From an uncultured virus (IMG/VR IMGVR_UViG_3300021963_000039) (Duplodnaviria > Heunggongvirae > Uroviricota > Caudoviricetes), in the IMG/VR virus record IMGVR_UViG_3300021963_000039: a stretch of DNA of 64,000 nucleotides. One strand, 5' to 3'. Both the position numbers and the translations under genes were made by a program. The notes under the pieces are model-generated. The model was not told the DNA's origin and searched no databases. It worked only from the letters and a program-made list of their open reading frames with translations. Shown here piece after piece: positions 2,945 to 44,017 of this stretch; the first letter of the stretch is position 1; each line of letters starts with the position of its first letter.

Positions 2945-5900
2945 TTAAGGAGATGTCATCACCCGAATTCCGGTTCCAGAATCAGAAACAGCAGCCAGAA
3001 TACTTTGCTCTGGGGACCAGCATACGCTGGTCCACTGGATATCTGCGGCAGCGGTCCTTCCAGTCCAGTTGATTCCATCCGGGCTGGTCATTACACGGTT
3101 AGTGTTGTTATTTGATACGGCAACAAATAGTCCCAACTCGGCAGCCCAGCATACGCTGAGCCACTGGTTATCTGCGGCGCTGGTCCGGGAAGTCCAGTTG
3201 ATTCCATCCGGGCTAGTCATCACACGGTTTCCGGATCCGTCGTATGAAACGGCAACAAAAAGTCCTAACTCGGGAGACCAGCAGAGACCCACCCAAACAT
3301 TCTGCGCGGCAGCGGTCCTTCCAGTCCAGTTGATTCCATCCGTGCTGGTCATCACCCTCTGCGATCCAGTTCCATTATTTGCCGCACCAGAAACAGCAAC
3401 AAACAGTCCCAACTCCGAAGCCCAAACGACGCTGAACCACTGGTTATCTTGGACTCCATTTGTTATGGTCCAGTTGATTCCATTCGAGCTGTACATCACA
3501 CAATCTAGTCCATTATAATTTGAAACAGCAACAAGCCGTCCCAACTCGGGAGACCAGCAGACAGATTGCCAATCTTTATTGAAACTCTGGCTTTGGGTGG
3601 TCCAGGTTGTTCCATTCGGGCTGGTCATTACCCGGTTAGCAGCTCCGCTCCAAGCAACAGCAACAAACAGTCCCAACTCGGCAGCCCAGCAAATACCCCT
3701 CCAGTTGTTGGCGGTGGTGGCGGCCTGCGAAGTCCAGTTGATTCCATTCGGGCTGGTCATTACACGGTTGGTGCCGGTGGAACTGACGGCAGCAAACATT
3801 CTCAACTCGGGGGACCAGGCAACGGCGTTCCAACTGTTATCTGCGGCACTGGTGCGACTGGTCCATGTCTGACGGGCCCAATAGTTTGCCATAGAAGATG
3901 TGGCACCTCTACCGCTAAAATAGGTTGCCTTTACTGTTCCATTAACATCAAGTTTTTTCGTAGGATTGGTGGTTCCAATACCAAGATTACCTGAAACATA
4001 GGCACCACCAGTAACTTGAAGTCTTTGTAATGCGGTTCCTGTTGATGTCCCAGTTCCTATTAATACTGGTCCGTTGGTGAATGTAGAAATACCAGTAATA
4101 CTTAATGAGGTTCCTACAATATTAGTACCACTAACAGAACCACCAACAAATTCACCATATATACCGCTATAAAGACGAGTAGCGGTTAAGACACCGGAGA
4201 CTAATACATCACCAACTACTGTGAGTTTTGATGTTGGAGTTGTGGTTCCAATACCAAGATTACCTGAAACATAGGCACCACCAGTAACTTGAAGTCTTTG
4301 TAATGCGGTTCCTGTTGATGTCCCAGTTCCTATTAATACTGGTCCGTTGGTGAATGTAGAAATACCAGTAATAGAAAGTGATGTTCCTACAATATTACTA
4401 CCACTAATAGAACCACCAACAAACTCACCATATATACCACTATAAAGACGAGTGGCAGTTAGAACACCAGAGACTAATACATCTCCAATTACGTGAAGTT
4501 TTGATGTGGGATTTGTGGTTCCTAATCCTATATTTCCGCCATAAGGTCCAAGTTGTATGGTTCCATTCGCATCCACATCAATACTTGGAATACCGGATAC
4601 ATCATTTACAGAATATATTGACCCTGTGGTTAGATTATTTGTAATTGAGAATAACTGACCTGCCGAACCTTCCCAACTTAAGGTTCCGGAGTTAAGAGTA
4701 TCATAAGGAACTATATCAATTACTGTTCCAATACCAAGTGTGGAGGCAATAGAGACATCACCTCTTACATCCAGTTTTGATAATGGATTTGTGGTTCTAA
4801 TACCAAGATTGCCAGTTGAGGGATTAAATACAAGACCAGTTGTGGTAACTCCAAGTCCGGTTGTATTGCCAGTTCCTATCGCATAAGTTAAGAATTGAGA
4901 TTGATTAGTGGTATTTGTTGATATTGATATGGAACCTCCACCACTACTATTGGAATTAATTGTAACCTGACCCGTTCCGCTGGGAGAAATAGTTATATTT
5001 GTTCCGGCAACAATTGAGGTTACAATACCCGTTAAGTTAAGACCATCACCATAATAGGTTACTCCAATTCCTCCTACGGTAGCACCAGTACCAACAGGAG
5101 ACATCCTGAAGTTCGCTATTGTAGAAATACCAGTAATAGAAAGTGATGTTCCTACAATACTTCTTAAGGTTGTAATTCCGGAGACATCTAATGAAGTAAC
5201 AGAAGCAATACCACCGATTACATTAGTTGCTATTCCTGCTCTATCGGCATAAGACGCTACGGATACACCAATACCAGTTAATTGAGAACCATCACCATAA
5301 TAGGTTACGACACCAGTAGTGGCAGTAATAATACCCGAAGATATTTTAACGGTTCCTAATGTAGAAATACCAGTAATAGAAAGTGATGTTCCTACGATAT
5401 TATTAAAGGTAGAAACACCGGAGACACTTAATTGAGTGACGGAAGCAATACCACCAATTACATTCGTAGCAATACCTGCTCTTTCGGCATAAGTTGCTAT
5501 ACCAGCAGTAGTAGCATATCCAGAAACTATATTAGTTAATTGAGAACCATCACCATAATAAGTTACAACACCAATTCCTCCTACGGTGGCACCAGTACCT
5601 ACATTTGTAATTGTAAGATTTGCTATGGTACTGATACCAGAGATACTTAGAGCAGTTCCTACAATACTTGCTAATGTTGTTATGCCGGTTACATTAAGTT
5701 GCGAAACAGAAGCAATACCACCGATTACATTAGTGGAATTAGTGGCAATACCAGCAGTAGTAGCATAACCCGAAACTATATTTGTTAGATTACGACCATC
5801 ACCATAATAAGTTACAATACCAACTCCGCCAACAGTAGCACCAGTACCTACCGGTGTCATTAGGAAGTTCGCTATTGTAGAAATACCAGAGATACTTAAA

Positions 5901-8900
5901 GCGGTTCCTACAAGATTTCGTGCGGTTAGAACACCGGAGACTAATACATCTCCAACTACGGTGAGTTTTGATGTTGGAGTTGTGGTTCCAATACCAAGAT
6001 TACCGGACGATAAAAATCTTGCCCATTCAGTTGCACCAGACCCAAATGCCATTCCATAAATAGCACCATTTGGATTATATTCAATATAACCTTGTTCGGT
6101 TACATCAGTTATATTAACAAGTTTTGTTGATGCACTTAACCAATCACTTCCTACAGCATTTCTTGTTGCTTTGATTCTTAAGTATGATGCATTTGTATTG
6201 TAATATAAAAATTGTGCGACGGTAAGTGCCGAACCAACTGTTCCTGCTAAAGTTATTCCAGAACCAACATTAGAAATAACAGCATTTGGAGAAAGTTGTA
6301 GTTGAACAGTTGGATTATTAGTTCCAATACCAATATTACCAATTGCATTCACAACAAAGGGACTACTATCGGGATTGGTAGAATCTTCAACTACCAGAGC
6401 ATTACCAGTTCCAAGTTGTGTAATACGAACCATATCACTTGATGTGGTTCCAGAGAATAATCCAGCAATAGAAGTTGCTGTTGGAACTACATTTAAAGTT
6501 GCTCCTGGATTTGTGGTTCCAATACCCAATGAATCAGTACCAGGATTGAATACTATTGAATTAGCGGATACTGTAATGGACGATATTGTACCAGTGGTGA
6601 TATCGGTCATTAATGGATAATATATTTTAGTATTTTCAGTATTTTCAATTGTATTTTTTATGCTTCCAGTTAGATTAGAACCATCACCATAATAAGTAAC
6701 ACCAATTCCACCAACGGTGGCACCAGTACCTACATTTGTAATTCTAAAGTTTGCTATTGTAGAAATACCGGTAATAGAAAGTGAAGTTCCTACAATACTT
6801 GCTAATGTTGTAATACCCGTAACATTTAAGGAAGTAACGGAAGCAATACCACCTATTACATTAGTGGCGATACCTGCTCTATCAGCATAAGTTACTACAC
6901 CGACAAGAGAACCTGCCGGAACACTACCCCAAGTAGGGACAGTACCATTCCAAATAAGAACTTTATTGGTTTCTGTGGCATTAGTTACAAAAGATGTAAT
7001 TCCAGCAGTATATTGATAAACAACACCAGGACCACCACCAAGATTAGTCGCTATACCGGCAGATGAGGCATAACCAATTAAAGTTCCCTTAAATGTTGTT
7101 GCCGTTATAATTCCAGAAGCATTAATATTTCTTACGACCGCTAAATCATTTTCGGTAAATTGGACTGAACCGGCAGCAAGTCTGGTTCCTACCGGGAATT
7201 GAGTGGAACCAATACCAACAGCATAGTTACTTAACCAAGCATCGGTTCCAAGTCCGGCAAAAGAACCTGCCTTAAACCACATAAATTTCTTATATGTGGC
7301 AGGATTTGTTTCAATACCCGCAATGAATAACTGAACTAATGGAGTTCCTTCAGTCGAAGCAAGAGCAACACCACCATGATTTGCGGTATTGTCATTAGAA
7401 GTATCATTACCAAAAGAATCAGTCCTATAACCAAGAACAATATCTGGGTCAAATATGTTTAATGATTGTGAAAAGATTACGGCAGAAGTACCACCAATCG
7501 TAATGTTTCCATTTACATTTAAGTTACGAATAACCTGAAGGTCTCTGGTAACCGTAACATCTTGTGGTGCCGTAAATTGATTTGGAATACTTAAGGTTAG
7601 TGATGAACCTTCGCTTATTCCGCCCGCAGGTGTAACTGTAATTTGATTTGCGGTTCCTGTGATATCCTTAACATAATCACCAAAGGTATCGGTTCCAAGA
7701 CCAACACTATTTGGTTGGATTGTCGCTGCTAATGATACATTACCGGTTCCATCAAAGAAGATTGGAGAAGCGACAACATCACCGGTAATCTCAAATGTTC
7801 TTTGATATTGGAGTGCTGTAGATACTCCAGCATTAGTAGCGTAAGTAGCAATACCAGAATTGGTGGCGTAAGTCGCTATACCAGAATTGGTGGCGTAAGT
7901 AGCAATACCTGCTGATGTAGCATAAGTAGCAATACCTGCTGATGTCGCATAAGTAGCAATACCTGCTGATGTCGCATAAGTTGCTATACCAGAATTGGTG
8001 GCGTAAGTAGCAATACCTGCTGATGTAGCATAAGTCGCTATACCAGAATTGGTGGCATAAGTTGCTATTCCTGCTGATGTAGCATAAGTCGCTATACCAG
8101 AATTGGTGGCGTAAGTAGCAATACCTGCTGATGTAGCATAAGTTGCTACGCCAGTAATAGAACCCGCATCCACATTACCCCAAACAGGAGCAGAACCATT
8201 CCAACGAAGAACTTGAGTTGATGTTGCTGATGAATTATCTACAAAAGTTGTGATACCGGGATTTAACTGATAAGGAATATTACCAGTAAGACCACCTTTA
8301 AGATTAGTAGCAATACCAGCGTTAGTGGCATAAGATGCTATTCCAGCATTAGTGGCATAAGTTGCTACGCCAGTAATAGAACCCGCATCCACATTACCCC
8401 AAACAGGAGCAGAACCATTCCAACGAAGAACTTGAGTTGATGTTGCTGATGAATTATCTACAAAAGTTGTGGTATCGGGTGCGGATTGATAAACAACATT
8501 ACCGGCATTACCACCTTTAATATGAGTTGATATACCAGCAGTAGTGGCATAACCAGAAGTAGAAACTACATTTGTTAGATTACGACCATCACCATAATAA
8601 GTAACACCAATTCCTCCTACAGTAGCACCAGTACCTACCGGCGTCATTAGGAAGTTTGCTATTGTTGAGATGCCACTAATAGAAAGTGAAGTTCCTACAA
8701 TACGCGATGCTGTTAAGATTCCAGTAACATTAAGTTGTTGTGAAGTTAGATTAGTAGTTGATGTAATTCCTAAAGTAGAAATACCAGAAATACTTAATGA
8801 TGTTCCTACAATACTTGCTAATGTAGTAATTCCAGTAACCAGAAGTTGTTGCGAAGTTAGATTAGCGGTTGATGTAACACCTAATGTGCTGATACCACTA

Positions 8901-17093: not shown

Positions 17094-17465
17094 TTAAGAC
17101 GCATTATTTTTTCTTGGACGATAAGAATAAAGATTAGTTGGTAATGGAGGTTTTATCCAATTTTCTATTTTATCAAATCTTTTTTCACTATAAAAATCTT
17201 GCTGTACATACCATAGTTTCCAGTGCTCGTGCCCCTTGGATTGATTACAAGAATGGCAAGAGCATACTACATTCGTGGTAGTATCCAATCCACCTTTTGA
17301 TTGAGGAACTATGTGATCTATTGTAAGATTATCCTCAGACTCACAATAGGCACACTTATGATTCCAACTCTCTTTGATATCTTTTCTCCATATTCGTTTA
17401 GCATCCCCAGAACTTGTTACACAAAGATTAAACAGGTACTCTTTAGGCGAATGGAGAGGTCCCAT
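17094..17465 (-). CDS. HNH endonuclease
   Basis: CAYC...LTIDHIVPQSKGG...NVVCSCHSCNQSKG. Confidence 0.9.
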   Translation of the reverse strand: MGPLHSPKEYLFNLCVTSSGDAKRIWRKDIKESWNHKCAYCESEDNLTIDHIVPQSKGGLDTTTNVVCSCHSCNQSKGHEHWKLWYVQQDFYSEKRFDKIENWIKPPLPTNLYSYRPRKNNAS

Positions 17466-18556: not shown

Positions 18557-18991
18557 ATGAAATACTGCACACATTGTAACACTACCAGACCTCTTGATGA
18601 ATTCTATAAAATTAGAGTGAAAAGAAAAGATGGAACTTACCGAGAAGGTCACAGGTCTATGTGTAATTTCTGCGATAGAAGTAGAAAAAGTAAAAGAGAT
18701 AGACGCACAAAAAAAGAAAGAGCAGAGCAACATTTATTCTCAAAATATAAAATGACCCCAGAAGAATTTACATTCCTACTGGAGTCACAAGAAAATAAGT
18801 GTGCTATTTGTGAAACATCAGATCCAGGTGGAAGATATAATAAATTCCATGTAGATCACTGCCACAAGACAGAGAATGTTAGAGGACTTTTGTGTCATAG
18901 ATGTAACTATGCTCTTGGTTATTTCCAAGATAATTCCTCCAATCTTTTAAGGGCTATCCAATACTTGGAGCAGTCAAAGCAACTTCAGTAG
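18557..18991 (+). CDS. endonuclease VII-family homing endonuclease (F-CphI-like)
   Basis: QENKCAIC...[24 protein letters not shown] (DHHRN-type); adjacent to psbA; ATAAATA at 18525-18531. Confidence 0.85.
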
Positions 18992-20036
18992 TAGATACTG
19001 CAGCAAGATCCAAAGGATAGTTATGGGCGTTCCTTTCGTGGACCACTTCAAACCCAAGATTGGCACGATTTAGGATATCTGCCCAAGTGTTGATTGCGTG
19101 TCCTTGAGAGTCAAGAATACTCTGGTTAAAATTTAGTCCGTTCAGATTAAAAGCCATGGTAGAAACACCAAGAGCAGCAAACCAAATACCAACTACCGGC
19201 CACGCTGCTAAAAAGAAGTGCAACGAACGGGAGTTATTAAAGGACGCATATTGAAAGATAAGACGACCAAAATATCCATGAGCTGCACATATGTTATAAG
19301 TTTCTTCTTCTTGACCAAACTTATAACCATAATTCTGCGATTCAGTTTCAGTGGTCTCACGAACTAGTGAAGAAGTCACTAGCGAACCGTGCATCGCTGA
19401 GAACAATGAACCACCGAAGACACCAGCAACTCCAAGCATATGGAATGGGTGCATCAGGATGTTATGTTCTGCCTGGAATACAAGCATATAGTTAAAAGTA
19501 CCAGAGATGCCGAGTGGCATAGCGTCAGAGAAAGAACCTTGACCGAAAGGATACACAAGGAATACGGCACTCGCAGCAGCAACAGGTGCAGAGTAAGCAA
19601 CCATAATCCAAGGACGCATACCTAGACGGTAAGAGAGTTCCCATTCACGACCCATGTAGCAATAGATGCCGATGAGGAAGTGAAATACAACAAGTTGAAA
19701 TGGACCTCCATTATACAACCATTCATCAAGGGAAGCAGCTTCCCAGATAGGATAGAAGTGAAGTCCGATAGCATTAGAACTGGGAACAACGGCACCAGAG
19801 ATGATGTTGTTTCCGTACATAAGAGAACCTGCTACTGGTTCCCGAATGCCGTCGATGTCCACTGGGGGGGCACCAACGAATGCAATAATAAAACACGTTG
19901 TCGCAGCGAGCAACGTAGGAATCATAAGAACGCCGAACCAACCAACATAAAGGCGGTTGTTCGTAGAAGTAACCCAGGAACAGAAATCATTCCACAGATT
20001 ATTAGTATTAGAACGTGTAGCAATTGTAGCAGTCAT
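18954..20036 (-). CDS. psbA: photosystem II D1 protein
   Basis: [15 protein letters not shown], HERNAHNxPLDLA; 360 aa, uninterrupted. Confidence 0.99.
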
Positions 20037-20039
20037 TTG

Positions 20040-20156
20040 TTAAAAAGGGGGTAAGTATGAGTTCGGGGGACGAACTTATTAGTAACTATATTCCACAACA
20101 CCCTCCGTCGTGGATATGAGGGATGCTTTACTTCTCGTGATCCCGGTTTGAGAAGA
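20040..20156 (-). ncRNA. structured psbA 5' leader, PhotoRC-II-like RNA motif
   Basis: Hairpins CTTCTC..GAGAAG, TCCACGAC-GGAGGGT-GTTGTGGA, AGTTCG..CGAACT; loop GAGGG complementary to CCCTC; position matches PhotoRC-II. Confidence 0.7.
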
Positions 20157-20202
20157 CACGGTTCTCAGAATTGTCACATTCCTTAACCCCGTGTATGTAT
20201 AT

Positions 20203-35942: not shown

Positions 35943-36089
35943 AAAATTTTATATACACTTTTTATATATTAAAGAAAGAGAGAGAGATTGATTAACAATT
36001 TTTATTAAGGGTTTTTATAATATTACTCTCTTTCTCAAAGTTTTTTTCTATATCTACATATGTCGTTAAAAGATAATATCTATTAATAT

Positions 36090-36353
36090 TTAATAATTAC
36101 TATCTTCGTCATCATCCTTAATATAAGAAGGAACATTATCAGGATCTAACCAGCAGGTGTAAGAAAAATCTTCCATAGCAGTCATAAGTTGCATTTCATT
36201 ATCCAGAAGATACATATCTCGATATCGTCCAGTATAAGAATCTACTTTCTGAATGCGACAATCAGGTTTTCCATTAATTTCAAGAGTTCCGACCTGAACA
36301 TAACGATATGGAAAACGCTCAAGAAGAACTGTGGGTTTCCGAGAAACTTTCAT
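36090..36353 (-). CDS. conserved cyanophage hypothetical protein
   Basis: 87-aa ORF ERFPYRYVQVG...RDMYL. Confidence 0.7.
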   Translation of the reverse strand: MKVSRKPTVLLERFPYRYVQVGTLEINGKPDCRIQKVDSYTGRYRDMYLLDNEMQLMTAMEDFSYTCWLDPDNVPSYIKDDDEDSNY

Positions 36354-36568
36354 CAGGCAACCTCTACAGATTTTAGATCTTGATCAAGATAGTCCATTAG
36401 AATATCATAATTATCGAGAGGATCATCAGAAAAAATTACTCCTTGATTCTCATAAAATCGGCGGACTTTTTTATAAAGTTTTGGATTTTTTACATCAAGA
36501 TAAAAATCACCATTAGTAGCACCACGAAGGGTACTAACGTCTTTCTTAAATTTTTGAATCAGAGACAT
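36353..36568 (-). CDS. conserved cyanophage hypothetical protein
   Basis: 71-aa ORF; TTGACA-17-TATAAT at 36592-36620, GAGG RBS. Confidence 0.7.
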   Translation of the reverse strand: MSLIQKFKKDVSTLRGATNGDFYLDVKNPKLYKKVRRFYENQGVIFSDDPLDNYDILMDYLDQDLKSVEVA

Positions 36569-36644
36569 TGTTCTGTTTTGTTTACCTCACTATTATAGTG
36601 TATTTGAATTTTTTTGTCAAGTGTGCCAGTCATAAAACTGGCAA

Positions 36645-36720
36645 TCGGAGTATTCAGATTTGAACTGAAATTATTCCGCTTCCCAAAAGCGGTGCCATAA
36701 CCAAATTAGGCGATACTCCG
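36645..36720 (-). tRNA. tRNA-Pro(TGG)
   Basis: CGGAGTA/TACTCCG acceptor, CCGCT-TTTGGGA-AGCGG anticodon arm, TTCAAAT T-loop. Confidence 0.9.
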
Positions 36721-37033
36721 GTGTTAATCGTCTTCGTTCTCATCCTCATATTTAGAAGGTTCCTCAAAGAGTTCTTCCATCTTGAGTTTTTGAATGCGAC
36801 CATAAAGTTCATTATAGTCGTCATCAGGCATTTCGTCAAAACTTACAACCATCAGTTCATCTCCTTTTTAACTCCTTTCATTTCATAGAACCCAATGTCT
36901 TATCAACCATATGGAATGTATAATGCCAAAAACAAACAAAGAACCAATAATTCCACTAATCCATCCAACACGAACTTCGTGATTTTTGATTGCCGCAGAG
37001 ATTGATTCATTTATCATTGACTGAATTTCATCT

Positions 37034-37234
37034 TTATCCATTCATAAAATCCTCATATGTCCTTAAGATTTCTGTATCAATATCATCTAAACTTTCATAA
37101 GAAGATTTCCAATCAGAATTAATTAATCTATCTATAAATTGATATACTTTAGTTGTTAGAGAAATATTCATACGAACAAAAGAACTCAAAAAAAATTGTC
37201 TTTTTTGCCAATTTTTATCCTTGATGTTCTCCAT
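37034..37234 (-). CDS. hypothetical protein
   Basis: 66-aa ORF in gene run. Confidence 0.55.
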   Translation of the reverse strand: MENIKDKNWQKRQFFLSSFVRMNISLTTKVYQFIDRLINSDWKSSYESLDDIDTEILRTYEDFMNG

Positions 37235-37370
37235 TTAGATACTTTGATAATGGATCTTTTTTAGTTTTTATAATTTCACAAGCTCTTTTATAGAACATAT
37301 TATCAATATTACCAGATTCTTCAAATGTTTGTTTAATTTTTACCCAATTGCTATAGGTATGATCGTCCAT
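37215..37370 (-). CDS. small hypothetical protein (51 aa)
   Basis: MDDHTYSNWVKIKQTFEESGNIDNMFYKRAC... Confidence 0.6.
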   Translation of the reverse strand: MDDHTYSNWVKIKQTFEESGNIDNMFYKRACEIIKTKKDPLSKYLNGEHQG

Positions 37371-37455
37371 TTAAATTTATAGTTAATAATAATAATTTAT
37401 CTTAAAGAGAATATTGACTTTAATTTTTATGTGTGGATTTTATGACATAAAATAT

Positions 37456-37716
37456 TCAACGAACCTCAAAATCTAAACGCCGAACTTTACGCTGGCGTCT
37501 TTCTTCTTGCCACATCAAATCCTCATTACGAAGAACATTACTTGTGGTTTTTTGAGTTTGATTATTCAACATTACTATCATTGACAAATCAAGAGCAGTA
37601 ATTTTAGCATTACGAATAATGGTTGCCATATTAGAGCAACCACAAGAAACTGATTTTGCGGCATTTCCTTCTATCTCCTTTTCACAAGAGCGACATCTAA
37701 TTCTTAAGTTTTCCAT
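37456..37716 (-). CDS. hypothetical Cys-motif protein
   Basis: CRSC...CGCSN. Confidence 0.7.
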   Translation of the reverse strand: MENLRIRCRSCEKEIEGNAAKSVSCGCSNMATIIRNAKITALDLSMIVMLNNQTQKTTSNVLRNEDLMWQEERRQRKVRRLDFEVR

Positions 37717-37736
37717 TTGTCATTATAAGTTAATTT

Positions 37737-38171
37737 TTATTCGGTAAATGAACGTAGCATCCAAACAAACTTACCGTGTGCTTCGTTTAAATCATCAGCA
37801 AGATTAACAGTTCCTCTTGACTTTTGTGCGTCTGCTTCTTCGGCAACTTCACCTAACATATCTATAATCTTTTTATGACCCTCAAGTAGATCTTTAATCA
37901 TTTCCATTTCAGAAATATTAGTTTTTGCTTCTCCTACACCAGAAACTTCTACAACTCTAGACAAAGAACTAATAGGTTTGATTCCTAAAAATCTCATATG
38001 TTCTGATATACGATCAACTTCTTCTTGAATTTCTGCGTATTGGTCACCAAACAAATCGTGAATTTGCTTAAAGTCGGATCCCACAACGTGCCAATGATAG
38101 ACCCAGGTTTTTTGAAATAACAAAAAAAGTGATGCTTGCGTATCACTTATAAGTTTATACAGTTTTTCCAT
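37737..38171 (-). CDS. dps: Dps / DNA starvation-protection ferritin-like protein
   Basis: YHWHVVGSDFKQIHDLF, DRISEH, KFVWML; ATAAATA at 38190-38196. Confidence 0.92.
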   Translation of the reverse strand: MEKLYKLISDTQASLFLLFQKTWVYHWHVVGSDFKQIHDLFGDQYAEIQEEVDRISEHMRFLGIKPISSLSRVVEVSGVGEAKTNISEMEMIKDLLEGHKKIIDMLGEVAEEADAQKSRGTVNLADDLNEAHGKFVWMLRSFTE

Positions 38172-38195
38172 TATACTAAATGTTTTAAGTATTTA

Positions 38196-38381
38196 TTAGG
38201 AACCACTTATCATATATTCTACAGTATTTGCCACATCATTCATCGCTTCTCGTAGATTTTCACTTTGACCAGATTCTTGTTTGCGAACAGGACGAGAACT
38301 ATCACAAAGAGTCCACCGCCACTGCTTCATAGAATCACACCACCATAAGTTAATTTTCATTCTTATAGTGCTCCAGCTCAA
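38196..38381 (-). CDS. hypothetical protein (start likely 38360)
   Basis: MKINLWWCDSMKQWRWTL... Confidence 0.6.
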   Translation of the reverse strand: MSWSTIRMKINLWWCDSMKQWRWTLCDSSRPVRKQESGQSENLREAMNDVANTVEYMISGS

Positions 38382-38508
38382 TCCATTTAAGAAGTGTATT
38401 AAATGAAGTAATAGATGCCTGAGTACAATTATCTTCTTTTAATTTAAGAATATAATACTCAAGTGCCTCGATTACCATCTCTCGATCTTTTTGTGATATT
38501 AGTGACAT
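38350..38508 (-). CDS. small hypothetical protein (52 aa)
   Basis: MSLISQKDREMVIEALEYY...LLKWIELE. Confidence 0.6.
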   Translation of the reverse strand: MSLISQKDREMVIEALEYYILKLKEDNCTQASITSFNTLLKWIELEHYKNEN

Positions 38509-38537
38509 AAAAATCTTAACTCCAAGTTATAGTACAC

Positions 38538-38563
38538 AAAAAGGGGGGTTTGCCAACCCCCCT
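38538..38563 (-). terminator. intrinsic terminator after pstS
   Basis: GC hairpin GGGGG-TTGGCAAA-CCCCC then TTTTT. Confidence 0.8.
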
Positions 38564-38568
38564 ATGTA

Positions 38569-39534
38569 TTATTCCTTAATTTGATTTACAGCAGCCTGTG
38601 CTTTTGCTTGAATTGCATCCTTAAGAGGAACATATCCAAGATCATCAGCAAATGCCTGTGCCTTATCACTCAGCATATAATTGATGACACCTTTAATAGC
38701 ATCAGTCTTAGCACCATTACCAGTTCTATAGGCAAGCAGATAAGTCAGTGTTGCAATGGGATATGCACCTTTTGCAGAAGGATTTGGATCCTGCCCTGCA
38801 AGGTTTTTATTCAGAACAATACCATTCAGTGCCTTGGCACCGGAAGCATAACTAGGGAGAACAAACTCACCAGACTTATTCTGAACTGCCGCTGCTTTCA
38901 GATTACCTTTGACAAAGGATTGATTGAGATATCCAATAGATCCTGGAGTTGTTGCAAGAATACCGGCAACGCCATCATTACCTTTACCACCAACACCAAC
39001 TTTCCAATTTACAGACTTAGCAGATCCAAGTGTCCATTCTTTAGAAAATGCTTGCATTGATTCGGTGAATGCAGCAGTGGTTCCAGAACCATCAGAACGG
39101 TGTGCTACGGTGATTTTACCAGCAGAGCAACCAAGTTCTTTCCAGTTATCAATAGAACCCATAAAAACGGATACTGCTTGCTTCTGAGTGAGTTTCAGTT
39201 TGCAAGCAGGATTATTGTAGGCAATTGCAATTGTTCCACCAACAGTAGGAATTTGTACCACACCACGAGAAACTTTAGCACGATCCTTATCACTAATTGG
39301 ATCATCAGTAGCACCAAGGGCAACTGTTTGGTCAATGAATGCCTTACGACCACCACCAGAACCAATTGCTTGATAATTGACTTTGGGACCGCCAGATTTG
39401 GCAAGATTAGAGAACCAACGAGTATAGATGGTTTCAGGAAATGTAGCACCAGCAATATTGATTCTTGCAGGCAATGCAAATGCTGCGGTAGGAGAAAGAG
39501 CAAGACCAATAGCAATAAAATGTTTGAGTTTCAT
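38569..39534 (-). CDS. pstS: phosphate ABC transporter substrate-binding protein
   Basis: Signal peptide; AGATFP, YQAIGSGGG, HRSDGSGTT, YPI. Confidence 0.97.
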   Translation of the reverse strand: MKLKHFIAIGLALSPTAAFALPARINIAGATFPETIYTRWFSNLAKSGGPKVNYQAIGSGGGRKAFIDQTVALGATDDPISDKDRAKVSRGVVQIPTVGGTIAIAYNNPACKLKLTQKQAVSVFMGSIDNWKELGCSAGKITVAHRSDGSGTTAAFTESMQAFSKEWTLGSAKSVNWKVGVGGKGNDGVAGILATTPGSIGYLNQSFVKGNLKAAAVQNKSGEFVLPSYASGAKALNGIVLNKNLAGQDPNPSAKGAYPIATLTYLLAYRTGNGAKTDAIKGVINYMLSDKAQAFADDLGYVPLKDAIQAKAQAAVNQIKE

Positions 39535-39546
39535 AAAAATGTTTTA

Positions 39547-39576
39547 AAGTTAAATTTTGGTTAAATGTACCTTAAT
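39547..39576 (-). promoter_or_regulatory. pho box (SphR/PhoB site)
   Basis: ATTAAGGT-aca-TTTAACCA-aaa-TTTAACTT, 11-bp period, fits cyanobacterial PyTTAAPyPy(T/A) repeats. Confidence 0.75.
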
Positions 39577-39578
39577 AT

Positions 39579-39601
39579 CAAAAATCCCCCTTGCGGGGGA
39601 A
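39579..39601 (-). terminator. intrinsic terminator after porin gene
   Basis: TCCCCC-GCAA-GGGGGA-TTTTT. Confidence 0.8.
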
Positions 39602-39628
39602 TAAATTGATATTGTACCTTATAGGTTA

Positions 39629-41113
39629 TCAGAACGTAAACTTAGTCTGAATTACGCCACCCCACTTGGAGGAGTTTTGATAACGTTGGTTGTTATCAGC
39701 ATAAAATATTGCCGGAGTAATACTAATGTTATCGGTGACTTGATACTTATAGAAGATCTCAATCATCAGAGCATCAGATACTTTTGAAACTTCTGCCGAG
39801 GGTGCTTGACCCACAGCAACGCCAGCACTATTACCCTTGGCAAATACATCAGACCACTGAAGACCAGCAAACCATGAATCTGAGTTCGTAGCACCATTTT
39901 TACCAACACGACCAGTTACGGAGTTATATCCATAACCGGCACTGATAGAAGGAACCCAACCAGATTCAACAGGTTGCCAATAAGCATTCAGAGCAACAGA
40001 GTTTGATTCCTGACCACTATCAAGAGTACCATTGGCACCCAGAAGACCGTTGTAGGTGCGAGGACGAGTGTTAACACCACCATAGCGGTAACCAACAGCA
40101 ACTCCCCACTGAGGAGCACGATAACCCACCTGAGCGAGCACGTTTAGACCACCATCAGAATCAAATACACCTGTTTCAGAAAACTCACCATCTTGTGCGA
40201 CATAGTTCACACCAGCCATGAAACCACCTTGACCTTTTTGAGTAGGTTGTTTCCATTGAGCACCAAAACCAGCACCAGTTGCCTTGTTATAGACACCCGA
40301 AGTACCGGCAAGTTGGAAGAAGTCAAGGATTTCTGACTTATAGGCAGAAGGAATCCACGACATCTCGGTGTTACGAACCAAAGGACCAGCAGTTAGAGTT
40401 ACACTCTTACCGACTGGGAATTGATAGTAAAGACGATCAATCACTGCTTGGTCGGAATATGATTCTGCCTTATCAAGTTTGAACAGAGAAGAGGAAGAAC
40501 CAAAAGGATCAGAACTAAAGTTTCCTGAACGGAGACGAGTACGAAGCAAATCCTTACCCGTGAATGAAGTATCAAAGTTCAGACGGAGATCATAGTTGAA
40601 TGCGGTGTTGCCGACGTTTCCACCTTTATTCGTTTTAAGACCAGGAACTCCACCAAGAACGAAGTTTGCTTCACCCTTGAGTTTGGTTGTAGTAGAAAAT
40701 TGTGTTGCCTGAAGTTGACCAACTTTATTCTCAAGACCATCCACACGAGAAGTCAATACAGTCAATTCTGCATCAAATTCTGCTAGGAGTTTTTTGAGTT
40801 CATCAGTAACTTCTGTTACACGATCCAGACAAGCATTAAGAAGAGCAGCAGCCTCAAAGCGAGTCATTGACTGACCGCCCTTATAGGTTCCGTTAGGATA
40901 TCCTGCTACGCAACCATAACGCTCTACAAGATTGCTGAGTGCTTGATATGCCCAATCAGTTGTTTGGACATCAGAGAATTGAGTAATGCTAGTAACTTGT
41001 TCTGAAGAGGCATATTGATTTACACCCTCAAGATTCAGTTCAGCAGCAGTTGCGATAGGAGCGATAAGTCCTAGAGCAACCGGAGCAAGCATTAATTGTT
41101 GAAAAAATTTCAT
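39629..41113 (-). CDS. cyanobacterial outer-membrane porin (SLH + OprB-type barrel, Som-like)
   Basis: Signal peptide, QVTSITQFSDV..DWAYQAL..ERYGC..TRFEAAA SLH domain, C-terminal F; CTAAATA at 41145-41151. Confidence 0.93.
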   Translation of the reverse strand: MKFFQQLMLAPVALGLIAPIATAAELNLEGVNQYASSEQVTSITQFSDVQTTDWAYQALSNLVERYGCVAGYPNGTYKGGQSMTRFEAAALLNACLDRVTEVTDELKKLLAEFDAELTVLTSRVDGLENKVGQLQATQFSTTTKLKGEANFVLGGVPGLKTNKGGNVGNTAFNYDLRLNFDTSFTGKDLLRTRLRSGNFSSDPFGSSSSLFKLDKAESYSDQAVIDRLYYQFPVGKSVTLTAGPLVRNTEMSWIPSAYKSEILDFFQLAGTSGVYNKATGAGFGAQWKQPTQKGQGGFMAGVNYVAQDGEFSETGVFDSDGGLNVLAQVGYRAPQWGVAVGYRYGGVNTRPRTYNGLLGANGTLDSGQESNSVALNAYWQPVESGWVPSISAGYGYNSVTGRVGKNGATNSDSWFAGLQWSDVFAKGNSAGVAVGQAPSAEVSKVSDALMIEIFYKYQVTDNISITPAIFYADNNQRYQNSSKWGGVIQTKFTF

Positions 41114-41172
41114 ATAGTTTGTTAAGAAATACAACTACGATGTTTATTTAGCTCCCCTGATATTTGAGGGGA

Positions 41173-41243
41173 AGCGGATACACGGATTTGAACCGAGGAT
41201 AAAAGTTTGGAAAACTCTTGTGTTACCACTACACCATATCCGC
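41173..41243 (-). tRNA. tRNA-Gly(TCC)
   Basis: GCGGATA/TATCCGC acceptor, TTTCCAA anticodon loop, U discriminator; own TTGACA-17-TATAAT promoter at 41254-41282. Confidence 0.9.
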
Positions 41244-41281
41244 ATTTGAAAGAATTATAAGACATAATGAGTATTATGTCA

Positions 41282-41355
41282 AGCCCCCAGCGAGGATTTG
41301 CACCCGCGACTATCGCTTACAAGGCGATTATTTTAACTACTACAACTATGGGGGC
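41282..41355 (-). tRNA. tRNA-Thr(TGT)
   Basis: GCCCCCA/TGGGGGC acceptor, ATCGC-CTTGTAA-GCGAT. Confidence 0.85.
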
Positions 41356-41435
41356 AAATAAAAGCAGGGTCTCTTGGATATACCGCAGTTCTTACTTTTA
41401 AATTTGGAAGACCCGAACATTTCCAGACCTTCCAA

Positions 41436-41508
41436 CTCCCCTCCTAGGTAACGCTCCTAGCTATCTCGAATTAACAGTTCGGCCCATTCGCTTGCTTGGT
41501 CGAGGGGA
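41436..41508 (-). tRNA. tRNA-Asn(GTT)
   Basis: TCCCCTC/GAGGGGA acceptor, CTGTTAA loop, G discriminator; atypical T-loop AGCGTTA. Confidence 0.75.
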
Positions 41509-41625
41509 ATGATGGTAGGAGGGATTTCTATGTGCCGATAGAATCACCTTTCACATCATCTAGCAGAAACCAGAGAGCGGTGTTGCACTTCCTACATTTT
41601 GATAGAGGCGCCTCTATCAGTTTAT

Positions 41626-41654
41626 ATATTACACCATTTCTGGGATGGTGTCAA
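41626..41654 (-). promoter_or_regulatory. sigma70-like promoter for Asn/Thr tRNA transcript
   Basis: TTGACA-17-TAATAT. Confidence 0.65.
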
Positions 41655-42121
41655 GTCCAAAGATTATGATCATATTCCCAATGACAATTTGGGCACAAAG
41701 GCATTATATTTTGTTTTGAGTTTATTTCACTAATCAATATATCATCACTAAAGGAAGAAATGGGTTTTATATGTGCAACTTCTATATGTTTATTATATCC
41801 ACATTTAAGACACTCAGTAAATCCAAGTTTTTTAGCAATTGCTCTCGCTCTTGTTCTTACCAAGGAGAATGCCGATGACTTGTGGTGATTTTCATATATC
41901 GCTTCTTTAAGAGTCATATCTTTTACTTCTTTATTCTTTATCCATATCAAATAGTGTTCCATACAACGAGCACGATTTGCTGTTATTGGTTTTCCACAAT
42001 CCAAACATTTATGTTCAGGTTTTCTTTTAGGAACCTTTTTATTGTTATAAGAAGCAGCACAACTTCTACTGCAAAATTTGGGATTAGAAGTATGCTTTTC
42101 GCAAAATAAACATTTAATCAT
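41651..42121 (-). mobile_element. free-standing HNH homing endonuclease in tRNA cluster
   Basis: KFCSRSC, CLKC...IEVAHIKP...NIMPLCPNCH; inserted between tRNA genes. Confidence 0.85.
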
Positions 42122-42123
42122 AA

Positions 42124-42165
42124 TGGAACCTTTAGTTACTATTATTTATACGCTAAAAGGTTCCA
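42124..42165 (-). promoter_or_regulatory. RBS-sequestering hairpin with T4-type late promoter in loop
   Basis: TGGAACCTTTTAG-cgTATAAATAatagtaa-CTAAAGGTTCCA-tt-ATG. Confidence 0.85.
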
Positions 42166-42169
42166 AAAA

Positions 42170-42288
42170 CGTCTCGTGCAAGATTCGAACTTGCGACCCA
42201 CTGCTTATCACCTTATAAGGAATTGAACCTTATCATAACCACCCGGAAGGCGGAAGGCAGTTGTTCTAATCCGCTGAACTAACGAGAC
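42170..42288 (-). tRNA. tRNA-Arg(TCT) interrupted by 45-nt insert (42208-42252)
   Basis: GTCTCGT/ACGAGAC acceptor, D arm with A20, ACTGC-CTTC[45 nt]TAA-GCAGT, GCAAG-TTCGAAT-CTTGC; 74 nt after removing insert; TTGACA-17-TATGAT at 42297-42325. Confidence 0.85.
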
Positions 42289-42326
42289 ATAAGACAATCA
42301 TAACAGACGATGCTAGGATTGTCAAA

Positions 42327-42399
42327 TGGGTTCGGTGGGGTACGATCCCACAACCTTTGCCTTAAGAGGGCACTATTCTTCCAGTTGAATTACGAACCC
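42327..42399 (-). tRNA. tRNA-Lys(CTT)
   Basis: GGGTTCG/CGAACCC acceptor, TGCC-CTCTTAA-GGCA; T-loop ATCGTAC. Confidence 0.85.
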
Positions 42400-42474
42400 A
42401 TAAGAAGAGAAGACCCAGACCTTCTCTATGGTCTCTCAACCACCCTCATAGAATAGCACCCAAGACCCGTGCTG

Positions 42475-42663
42475 TCAATCCTTTACTTCCTTGCGGGCGT
42501 TCTTCTCTTCGGTAATCTCGCCTCTGCGGGTCTTTACCAGTTTTGACATTTCTTGTAGTGCCTTGCGAGCACGAGTACCAGCGGCATTATTACCGGCAGC
42601 GAACTTTTCGTCTTCTACTTTCCATGCTTCAACAGCGTTCAGTAGTTCTTGTGATGTAGTCAT
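42475..42663 (-). CDS. histone H1-like (Hc1-family) small DNA-binding protein
   Basis: KFAAGNNAAGTRARKALQE motif. Confidence 0.7.
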   Translation of the reverse strand: MTTSQELLNAVEAWKVEDEKFAAGNNAAGTRARKALQEMSKLVKTRRGEITEEKNARKEVKD

Positions 42664-42707
42664 AATGATCTCTATAAAAAATAAGATATGTTTATATAGG
42701 TTAAAAA

Positions 42708-43193
42708 TTACTCAAATGGTATTTCACGAGGGTCTGGAGCAACCCATGCACCACGAATACCCATGGTTCCGTCAGCAAACTCATAATAAATTGCGTTTTC
42801 CACAATCAGTTTTTGTAACTTATCATACTTTGGTTTATTGATTTCTTCCAGAATATTTTGATTTCTCATATTAATCATGCGACTTCTGTGTTCTTCTATT
42901 TCATAAGATATAATCGCATAATCAACTTCGTTTTCTATTTTTTGTTGTAGAAGTTCTGGGTCTTCATTAATGCGTTGATTGAGTTGATTATCAAACTCAT
43001 CAACCATAGTATCAGGCAAATCCCACTTTATAAGTTTTCTCAGTTCGTTATAATACTTTAGAACATCTTTTTCTGAAAAATCACATTTTACCGTTAGAAA
43101 AGCAAGAAATGATGCTACTGCTACAGCGACTATAGACGCTTTTCTGGATATTTTTAGATTGAATAGAACATTAAAGTTGGGTTTTTGTTTCAT
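42708..43193 (-). CDS. membrane-anchored hypothetical protein
   Basis: N-terminal hydrophobic helix; late promoter at 43236-43243. Confidence 0.65.
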   Translation of the reverse strand: MKQKPNFNVLFNLKISRKASIVAVAVASFLAFLTVKCDFSEKDVLKYYNELRKLIKWDLPDTMVDEFDNQLNQRINEDPELLQQKIENEVDYAIISYEIEEHRSRMINMRNQNILEEINKPKYDKLQKLIVENAIYYEFADGTMGIRGAWVAPDPREIPFE

Positions 43194-43288
43194 ATTAATC
43201 CTATATCCTAATAATTCATGATAAGGAGTTTTAAGTATTTATAAAAAAAGAGGGTTGGTTAGACCCTCTAAAGATTATCTTATGAATA

Positions 43289-44017
43289 TCAAACTGAAGT
43301 AGTAATCAGTCTCTTTGAGTAATCATAAGCATATTCAGTTCTGGCACCAGTATGCCCCCAACGAATCCACTTTCTAGCAAGTTTCATATATTGATGAATG
43401 GTCTTGCCGGGAGTTTTCATATGAGGTTCAATCATCTTCCAATCACCTTCATACAACATATAATCAAGTTGTGTATCAAGTGCGGAAGGATTGGCACCAA
43501 TACGAGCAGCATGATACCCTAGTCCTTTATACCTTGGAGCATTCGTCCACTGAATCAATCCAAAACCACCACTTCTACAAGCGTGATAAGGCACTCGGGC
43601 ACCTCCTTCACAAATGTTTGGAGTGAAGGTAGATTCTTGGCGAATATTACCCATAATGGTCGCTAGGGCATTTTTGTCAGTAACTCCACGATCCTGGAGA
43701 AACTCCAAAGTTCGTGATTCATTATGATTACATCCTTTACAAACTAATCGTGTTTTAAGGTTTTCGGGAACAACCTCTTTGGTCTCTGTTTCTTGTGTGG
43801 AATCTTTAGTCATTAAAGGATTTGTGCTGGCACTTGTTCCTTTTGTTTTTTCTCTTTCTGAAAGAACATCAGCAAGTTGAGGATTTGCTTTTTGCCATTC
43901 AGAAATACTCACGGATACATTTTCTAAAGATTGAGCCATACCTTGTGTTGGCAGTGCTACCGCTGATGTTGCAACCGCACCTAAAAGCACGGCTACATTT
44001 GTTAGGTTTTTAAGCAT
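43289..44017 (-). CDS. secreted phage-tail-lysozyme-family cell wall hydrolase
   Basis: Signal peptide; ALATIMGNIRQES, GFGLIQWT..R, TQLDYML. Confidence 0.85.
   Translation of the reverse strand: MLKNLTNVAVLLGAVATSAVALPTQGMAQSLENVSVSISEWQKANPQLADVLSEREKTKGTSASTNPLMTKDSTQETETKEVVPENLKTRLVCKGCNHNESRTLEFLQDRGVTDKNALATIMGNIRQESTFTPNICEGGARVPYHACRSGGFGLIQWTNAPRYKGLGYHAARIGANPSALDTQLDYMLYEGDWKMIEPHMKTPGKTIHQYMKLARKWIRWGHTGARTEYAYDYSKRLITTSV

Follow-up and report, generated by a model that had tools for sequence, protein, structure and literature searches.

Introns in the transfer RNA (tRNA) genes of the Lak megaphages have been described as "enigmatic" and highly conserved, and one of them "may encode a tRNA" (Devoto et al. 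2019, PMC6784885). The predicted introns in Table S6 of that report are 23-141 nucleotides (nt) long (PMC6784885). Here we describe a 45-nt insert within the anticodon of a tRNA-Arg(UCU) gene, found in a 64,000-nt stretch of DNA from an uncultured virus (IMG/VR record IMGVR_UViG_3300021963_000039), the whole of which is called the window below. Both systems have a short insert that lacks an open reading frame (ORF) and interrupts the anticodon loop of a tRNA gene carried by a phage; a normal tRNA is left upon its removal, and its sequence is nearly invariant among carriers. The 93-nt intron of the Lak tRNA-Tyr gene also ends, as read by eye, in an acceptor-like helix and a T arm near the 3' junction. 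Conversely, the Lak phages are megaphages of gut Prevotella, whereas the present carriers are T4-like cyanophages, and the insert is a bare module of 43-45 nt as against 23-141 nt. The present insert also lies within the anticodon itself, between nt 35 and 36, stands beside an HNH endonuclease gene and is replaced in related phages by a group I intron. It offers a minimal form of the unexplained Lak introns. The titles and abstract openings retrieved on cyanophage tRNA introns, on tRNA introns processed by RNase P, RNase Z and a ligase, and on group I introns in phage tRNA-Arg genes contained no description of the insert.

A second relevant system is collaborative homing, where an intron that lacks an ORF and a free-standing endonuclease converge on one target site (PMC3984707). 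The layout is the same here: a free-standing nuclease gene, of the HNH type, lies directly 3' of a conserved gene that contains an ORF-less intervening sequence. Insert carriers exist with and without the nuclease gene, and in sister phages the neighbouring nucleotide is the site of a true group I intron, again with the same HNH family. The difference is that the 45-nt insert lacks a ribozyme core and with it the ability to self-splice (no ribozyme family in Rfam matches it), and that the target is a tRNA gene rather than a protein gene. A third system is SegB of phages T4 and T6, a homing endonuclease whose gene belongs to the tRNA cluster and whose target is the tRNA region of relatives infecting the same cell (PMC2330249, PMC13096335). 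As in the window, a free-standing homing endonuclease gene lies within the tRNA cluster of a T4-like phage. SegB is a GIY-YIG enzyme, not an HNH enzyme, and its system involves no intervening sequence of a tRNA gene.

To our knowledge, tRNA introns are removed by self-splicing or by the archaeal/eukaryal endonuclease-ligase machinery, and in no other way; the insert, which is conserved, apparently selected and lodged in the chief Arg decoder of a phage common in aquatic habitats, fits neither route. It shares with group I introns of tRNA genes the anticodon-loop position and the exact restoration of the loop on removal, but is 45 nt long rather than about 200 nt or more. No match to the group I core (P3-P8; Rfam Intron_gpI) was obtained at E values up to 10, either over positions 36000-43500 or with the insert alone. 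The bases typical of group I splice sites (U before the intron, G at its end) are also lacking, with C before the 5' junction and A as the last base. Introns of the bulge-helix-bulge type usually lie at 37/38; the insert lies at 35/36, and two 3-nt bulges around a helix of 4 base pairs (bp) appear in neither its minimum-energy fold nor its centroid fold. An earlier reading of the window from its letters and ORF list (the original prediction) had set aside both intron classes, and these results agree with it. No splicing endonuclease Pfam family was detected among the 62 window ORFs scanned. An embedded acceptor/T-arm mimic with its ends at the cut sites predicted for RNase P and RNase Z is also found in the mascRNA of MALAT1, a tRNA-like RNA released by RNase P and RNase Z, and in the t-elements of plant mitochondria. 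Those elements differ in that they mark transcript ends, with flanks that are not rejoined, and are eukaryotic or organellar.

The split tRNA-Arg(UCU) gene and its insert

The gene occupies positions 42170-42288 on the minus strand, where the sequence is exactly as first written out, with the 45-nt insert between nt 35 and 36. Infernal aligned it end to end (model positions 1-71) with the Rfam tRNA model RF00005 at 53.2 bits (gathering score 29) and assigned the surplus bases to the anticodon loop. ARAGORN called the gene only when introns were allowed, as a tRNA-Gly(tcc) whose 45-nt intron would occupy the canonical position. Since the program picks another junction, a single gene cannot fix it. 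The 37/38 reading was rejected, as it would put a Gly anticodon on an Arg body.

The junction was fixed by homology. Both exon halves have annotated phage tRNA-Arg genes as their best blastn matches. Among 80 IMG/VR loci fetched via the neighbouring lysozyme-like gene, 51 bear tRNA genes, and 46 of these 51 carry an uninterrupted tRNA-Arg(tct), usually as the first tRNA after the lysozyme-like gene and in all cases with the anticodon loop CTTCTAA. One uninterrupted gene (L034) shares CTGCCTTCTAAGCAG exactly with the window gene. On this homology the insert lies between C35 and U36 of an Arg(UCU) gene, because this is the sole cut that restores the loop CTTCTAA. Both the identity of the tRNA and the 35/36 junction of the original prediction are confirmed in this way. 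The 5' exon (42253-42288, minus strand; nt 1-35) comprises the 5' strand of the acceptor stem, the D arm, the 5' strand of the anticodon stem and the loop bases CUUC. The 3' exon (42170-42207, minus strand) comprises UAA, the 3' strand of the anticodon stem, the variable loop, the T arm and the 3' strand of the acceptor stem, and ends with a discriminator G and no encoded CCA. CCA is likewise encoded by none of the five tRNA genes of the window, as had been noted before, albeit with a count of six. The statement that AGA codons are common also holds: AGA accounts for 350 of 689 Arg codons in 49 ORFs and is the commonest of them. A second Arg(UCU) gene was found neither in the 64-kilobase (kb) window nor in a 96.7-kb carrier contig (G001); therefore, if the interrupted gene were dead, the phage would have no decoder for its commonest Arg codon.

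The intervening sequence itself (42208-42252, minus strand, as are all its parts) is 45 nt long, or 43 nt in one variant (L002), and is not present in the 46 syntenic plain Arg(tct) genes. It opens with CGCCTT (42247-42252), the 5' strand of an outer, acceptor-like helix that pairs with 42209-42214 and is unchanged in all four full distinct variants; with the exon end this strand gives a tandem GCCTTCC GCCTTCC at the 5' junction. A 13-nt linker follows (CCGGGTGGTTATG, 42234-42246), whose GG-rich 5' part is invariant and whose 3' end falls inside a variable patch (42231-42236) at the position of the tRNA variable loop and the first T-stem pairs. A T-arm-like hairpin (ATAAGG/TTCAATT/CCTTAT, 42215-42233) is present in all folds and is aligned by Infernal with the tRNA T arm. 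The 3' strand of the outer helix, AAGGTG, and one unpaired A resembling a discriminator (42208-42214) abut the 3' exon.

This tRNA-like build, with both helices and the TTCAATT loop present as originally described, is far beyond chance. Among 300,000 shuffled versions of the insert, a terminal helix of at least 5 bp with a 0-2-nt overhang appeared together with a T-arm hairpin of at least 5 bp and a TTCRANY loop in 9, and a T-arm-like hairpin as such in 148. The centroid fold recovers both helices (CGCCTT/AAGGTG and ATAAGG/CCTTAT). RNase P and RNase Z require an acceptor/T stack, a T-loop and a discriminator, and the insert offers a 12-bp acceptor/T stack, a consensus T-loop, an unpaired discriminator and no CCA. 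With the insert alone, Infernal gave two sub-threshold alignments, one as a 5'-truncated tRNA (14.9 bits, E 0.39) and one end to end with mascRNA (12.5 bits, E 1.7, gathering score 42.5). A promoter inside the insert (TATGAT in the patch) was considered and dropped, since the hexamer is not retained in other variants. Decoding with the insert in place, or with TTCAATT as the anticodon loop, would be ruled out by geometry.

The insert is present in nine contigs from different samples, namely the window, three IMG/VR contigs (those behind L001, L002 and L003) and five metagenome contigs (L091-L095), and the pattern-scan matches fall within a tRNA-Arg gene in all cases. Five sequence variants (window type, L091, L093, L094 and L002) occur in two exon backgrounds; the L094 variant is cut by a contig end, and the alignment of full variants comprises four. 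L002 pairs the 43-nt form with clearly different Arg(UCU) exons. Across the four full variants 38 of 45 insert positions are identical, and all four substituted columns (42236, 42234, 42233 and 42231), together with the 2-nt deletion of L002 (42235-42236), lie inside the 6-nt patch. Clustering of four sites within 6 nt has p = 1.4e-4 over 119 nt and p = 2.7e-3 over 45 nt. The same patch changes are seen in a contig from an RNA library. Between the window and L002, the exons differ in 16 of 74 columns, with five compensatory pairs in the tRNA helices, and the 38 non-patch bases of the insert are identical. Variation in the inner insert helix amounts to one A-U to G.U switch and a broken outermost pair in L093; the outer helix is invariant. 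Between the window and L094, 27 of 468 nt differ in the HNH gene (18 of 156 third positions) and 3 of 48 nt in the spacer, as against none of 38 nt in the 3' exon and 3 of 47 nt in the insert, all within the patch. The insert looks selected, because all its variation is confined to the 6-nt patch. Judged by these alignments it is not drifting junk: its identity would be explained either by purifying selection of much the same strength as in the exon or by movement between alleles.

A 21-mer of the insert gave no match in 185,579 prokaryote genomes, and therefore no source tRNA or host copy was found. Among isolated phages no carrier was detected, megablast returning only a tRNA-sized match and blastn only the exon halves. 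A looser insert pattern gave three further IMG/VR matches outside the family (L086, an ordinary tRNA-Thr; L087, a tRNA-like 3' end; L088, unrelated), and a metagenome match (L090) is also unrelated to the insert family. A fuzzy search of L001-L095 and the window revealed no insert halves outside a tRNA-Arg context. As to origin, a templated copy of a tRNA gene fragment can be conjectured, since the Infernal alignment of the insert as the 3' two-thirds of a tRNA and the GCCTTCC tandem would both fit it. The tRNA-like 3' end in L087 (about 2960-3045) encodes CCA, receives no ARAGORN call, and has a T arm GAGG/TTCAATT/CCTC and an acceptor-like pairing CCGCGATG/CATCGCGG.

An HNH gene and a group I intron at the neighbouring position

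A free-standing HNH endonuclease gene (41651-42121, minus strand; 156 amino acids; Pfam HNH_2 at 2e-9, PHROG 1271) lies 48 nt downstream of the tRNA gene. In a second set of 80 IMG/VR loci, chosen as bearing relatives of this protein, the relatives adjoin tRNA-Arg(UCU) genes in 71. In 31 of these loci the HNH protein is at least 80% identical. In 26 of the 31 the gene stands directly behind an Arg(UCU) gene with a 201-209-nt intron, in two behind the 45-nt insert, and in two (L121 and L122) behind a plain Arg gene with a different anticodon stem, ATTCT/AGAAT; the last one has no upstream DNA. Altogether, an interrupted Arg(UCU) gene precedes 28 of the 30 close HNH relatives with upstream DNA.

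The intron of about 200 nt is inserted between U34 and C35, one nucleotide upstream of the site of the 45-nt insert. In L081 it is a group I intron (Rfam Intron_gpI, 63.2 bits; gathering score 50); this score was obtained on that one locus, and the other long introns were compared by eye, on 13 sequences. From these associations the anticodon region of the cyanophage tRNA-Arg(UCU) gene is very probably a homing site of the HNH family. The carriers would protect this site by a group I intron, by the mini-insert or by a divergent stem, the cleavage specificity being inferred. An indirect hint on the target of the nuclease is that the divergent stem ATTCT/AGAAT is found in both uninterrupted alleles beside a close HNH relative. 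The related phages offer exceptionally clean natural controls, in the form of insert-free, mini-insert and group I intron alleles, each with or without the HNH gene. The HNH gene, the group I intron at 34/35 in related phages and the published Lak introns had all been missing from the original prediction.

The many cyanophage contigs whose Arg(UCU) gene is split at 34/35 by the 201-209-nt intron belong to L079-L081 and L106-L134 (for example, L081 7447-7723) and have an HNH gene 80-90% identical to that of the window about 48 nt later. With an intron limit of 200 nt, ARAGORN mislabels the split Arg gene as Leu(taa). L133 contains a further 118-nt tRNA-shaped gene (199-316), whose acceptor stem, D arm and T arm are normal and whose middle is long and unassignable, in a cluster shared with a group I-split Arg gene; ARAGORN reads it as Arg(tct) with a 34-nt intron at position 30.

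Proposed role and alternative explanations

We propose, with a probability of about 0.55, that the insert is a mini-intervening sequence, conserved, shaped like a tRNA and free of ORFs, which interrupts the anticodon of the tRNA-Arg(UCU) gene of T4-like cyanophages, most likely at the homing site of the HNH endonuclease family that adjoins this gene. At the DNA level, the insert would split the sequence that the nuclease presumably cuts, as the group I intron does. A carrier genome would be immune to the nuclease as its target is split, and co-infecting phages whose insert-free alleles had been cut could receive a copy of the insert, whether or not the HNH gene came with it. Such a scheme would follow the logic of collaborative homing. 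At the RNA level, the insert is probably recognised through its tRNA-like fold, a view suggested by the fact that AGA is the main Arg codon and that exons and insert are intact. The leading idea is that RNase P would cut before the first base of the insert, and RNase Z after the unpaired A.

Several observations weigh against this proposal. On the DNA side, the link with the HNH gene is not strict: L121 and L122 pair an HNH protein 84-85% identical with an uninterrupted Arg gene, 41 of the 49 more distant or partial HNH relatives adjoin an uninterrupted Arg(tct) gene, and L091, L093 and L002 bear the insert without the HNH gene. Recent transfer, rather than selection, could also explain why the insert is identical in different exon backgrounds. 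On the RNA side, the folding energy of the insert is ordinary (z = -0.75; 56 of 200 shuffles fold equally well), and the minimum-energy fold favours a rival 5' hairpin, CGCCU/GGGUG, over the outer helix; the fold drawn in the original prediction is therefore recovered in the centroid but not in the minimum-energy structure. The homologous inserts that were to be looked for do exist, on the nine contigs including the window, but none of the 12 insert pairs shows a compensatory change in the four full variants; the support for the fold comes from its motif and its conservation. In four metatranscriptome runs, available as contigs, no record bridges the 45 nt, and one RNA-library contig (depth 10) is an unspliced gene of the L093 type. 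This RNA evidence is weak, because mature tRNAs are rarely assembled and DNA may contaminate RNA libraries; in contigs, rare or short RNAs are missed and depth comparisons are unusable.

The ligase searches point the same way. No RNA ligase family was detected among the window ORFs. Neither PF09414 nor RtcB was found in three partial carrier or relative contigs (the 96.7-kb carrier G001, and G002 and G003) or in five related Kyanoviridae genomes that are complete. Ligases are also rare in the likely host family, taken as the one around the best psbA match: of its 81 genomes, six have PF09414 and two have RtcB. A search of the Kyanoviridae for PF09511 and one of the 81 host-family genomes for PNKP_ligase (PF16542; no match) were uninformative, as the control was silent in each. 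RtcB, moreover, needs RNA ends other than 3'-OH/5'-P. The carrier genomes are incomplete, and a phage ligase may therefore still exist.

The alternatives differ mainly in the fate of the tRNA. In the original prediction, RNase P and RNase Z cut out the insert and an Rnl-type ligase joins the 3'-OH of C35 to the 5'-P of U36, giving a working tRNA-Arg(UCU). This model has attractive features. The predicted cuts are exactly the sole junctions that restore CTTCTAA; the 12-bp stack, T-loop and one-base overhang exceed chance; variation is limited to the equivalent of the tRNA variable loop; and CCA follows neither the insert nor any tRNA gene. AGA is the main Arg codon, the exons are intact in both backgrounds, and similar nested mini-tRNAs occur in the tRNA introns of the Lak phages. 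We nevertheless consider the full model unlikely. PF09414 and RtcB were not found in the five complete relatives or in G001 and are rare in the likely host family (6/81 and 2/81), the window ORFs include no RNA ligase family, no spliced joint appears in the four RNA runs, and the insert helices show no covariation. In addition, related phages use a self-splicing intron here, suggesting that no general protein-based route is available. With these results the proposed splicing finds no support. That a working tRNA-Arg is produced by this route at all is likewise doubtful, because the sealing ligase was not found. A wider version, which we also regard as unlikely, is that miniature tRNAs form a third class of tRNA intron, in which the cell's RNase P and RNase Z cut the ends of the insert, an unrecognised ligase of picocyanobacteria or T4-like phages reseals the exons, and the element spreads as the immunity partner of an HNH nuclease specific for the tRNA gene. 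If the insert is spliced, it would imply an undescribed tRNA-splicing route and an unrecognised ligase in bacteria or phages.

It is also possible, if improbable, that the tRNA is dead. Here the insert would be a scar or shield at the DNA level that breaks the HNH target, perhaps a tRNA-fragment copy from break repair, with the function of Arg(UCU) lost. No removal route is known, no ligase was found in the five complete relatives and ligases are rare in the likely host family, and an RNA library holds the unspliced form, with no joint seen. The insert can also be aligned by Infernal with the last two-thirds (3' side) of a tRNA, the tandem GCCTTCC where the 5' exon meets the insert resembles microhomology, and the drive of a selfish HNH gene could exceed the cost. 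However, a shield need not keep its sequence, yet the 38 non-patch bases are identical while the exons differ at 16 of 74 columns, and they show no change next to a gene in which 18 of 156 third codon positions differ. None of the five variants shows exon decay, Arg is most often encoded by AGA, and 46 of the 51 tRNA-bearing relatives retain Arg(UCU). A decaying pseudogene (the original prediction had allowed for a pseudogene from duplication) is contradicted by the non-patch bases, which are as conserved as the exon. If the insert is not spliced, either a homing endonuclease would have driven a costly, gene-breaking element through wild phages, or the gene would have become a new small RNA.

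The last possibility leads to a reading in which the products are other RNAs, either a free 45-nt mini-tRNA-like RNA and two unsealed tRNA halves, set free by RNase P and RNase Z, or an unspliced, tRNA-shaped, non-decoding RNA, for example a decoy for a host factor that binds tRNA. The insert sequence is itself constrained, the gene has its own putative promoter, a ligase would be unnecessary, the unspliced form is present in the RNA library, and the best non-tRNA Rfam alignment, sub-threshold, is mascRNA. We find it rather improbable: the exact restoration of the anticodon loop by removal of 45 nt would be a functionless leftover, no partner or target is known, and the loss of the most-used Arg decoder would go unexplained.

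It is very unlikely that the insert is a stump left when a group I intron lost its core by deletion. A group I intron does lie 1 nt away in the same gene, beside the closest HNH relatives, and 12 of 13 positions (CCTTATAA-GTGA) match the 5' part of the L106 intron, whose HNH protein is the closest intron-linked relative (90%). This match was equalled by 20 of 1000 shuffles with seven introns tested, the other six giving 133-852 of 1000, and the resemblance to the neighbouring introns is not significant. The insertion points differ (34/35 and 35/36), C precedes the 5' junction and A ends the insert in place of U and G, Intron_gpI has no match at E up to 10, no intermediate lengths occur among 160 loci, and the constraint seen on the insert would be unexpected for a stump. 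An assembly or sequencing artefact, also raised originally, can be dismissed: no point in its support was found, and the same insert occurs in the window and eight other contigs from different samples, in five variants, and in an RNA-library contig.

The phage and neighbouring features

By its gene content, the window is a T4-like Synechococcus/Cyanobium phage. It codes for psbA, nrdAB, UvsX, a gp41-like helicase, MazG and PstS; its UvsX is 80-82% identical to those of Kyanoviridae isolates, and its psbA is 89% identical to that of a Cyanobium genome.

The putative promoter of the tRNA-Arg gene is sigma-70-like (TTGACA-N17-TATGAT, 42297-42325, minus strand), was read by eye, ends 8 nt upstream of the gene and is kept in the flanks of the window type, L093 and L005. 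The Arg and Gly tRNA genes (Gly region 41173-41243) each have such a promoter of their own a few bases upstream, TTGACA-N17-TATGAT or TATAAT as read by eye, and with separate candidate promoters the two tRNAs would therefore apparently not share a common cluster transcript. In L081 an abiF RNA motif (Rfam RF03085, 53.8 bits, gathering score 37) lies at 7403-7439, directly 5' of the tRNA-Arg gene, and an abiF-type hairpin is also present just upstream of tRNA-Arg in many relatives, L034, L106, L116 and L121 among them. The 15-nt abiF core motif was not found in the window, where tRNA-Lys and the sigma-70-like promoter precede tRNA-Arg. The tRNA-Lys gene (42326-42400, minus strand) has the anticodon CTT, whereas the L003 and L092 genes, identical in every other respect, have TTT, a single C/T change of the wobble base between near-identical phages.

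Just before the start codon of the HNH gene, an inverted repeat read by eye (42125-42164, minus strand) pairs GGAACCTTTTAG with CTAAAGGTTCC around TATAAATA (42143-42150). We take this region to resemble a T4-style late promoter within a hairpin that would sequester the ribosome-binding site. Another HNH endonuclease gene, unrelated to the first (17094-17465, minus strand; 123 amino acids; HNH_5 at 1.8e-13) is located about 1.5 kb from psbA (18954-20036), and a PhotoRC-II motif of Rfam (20078-20167, minus strand; 40.2 bits, gathering score 39) lies just 5' of psbA.

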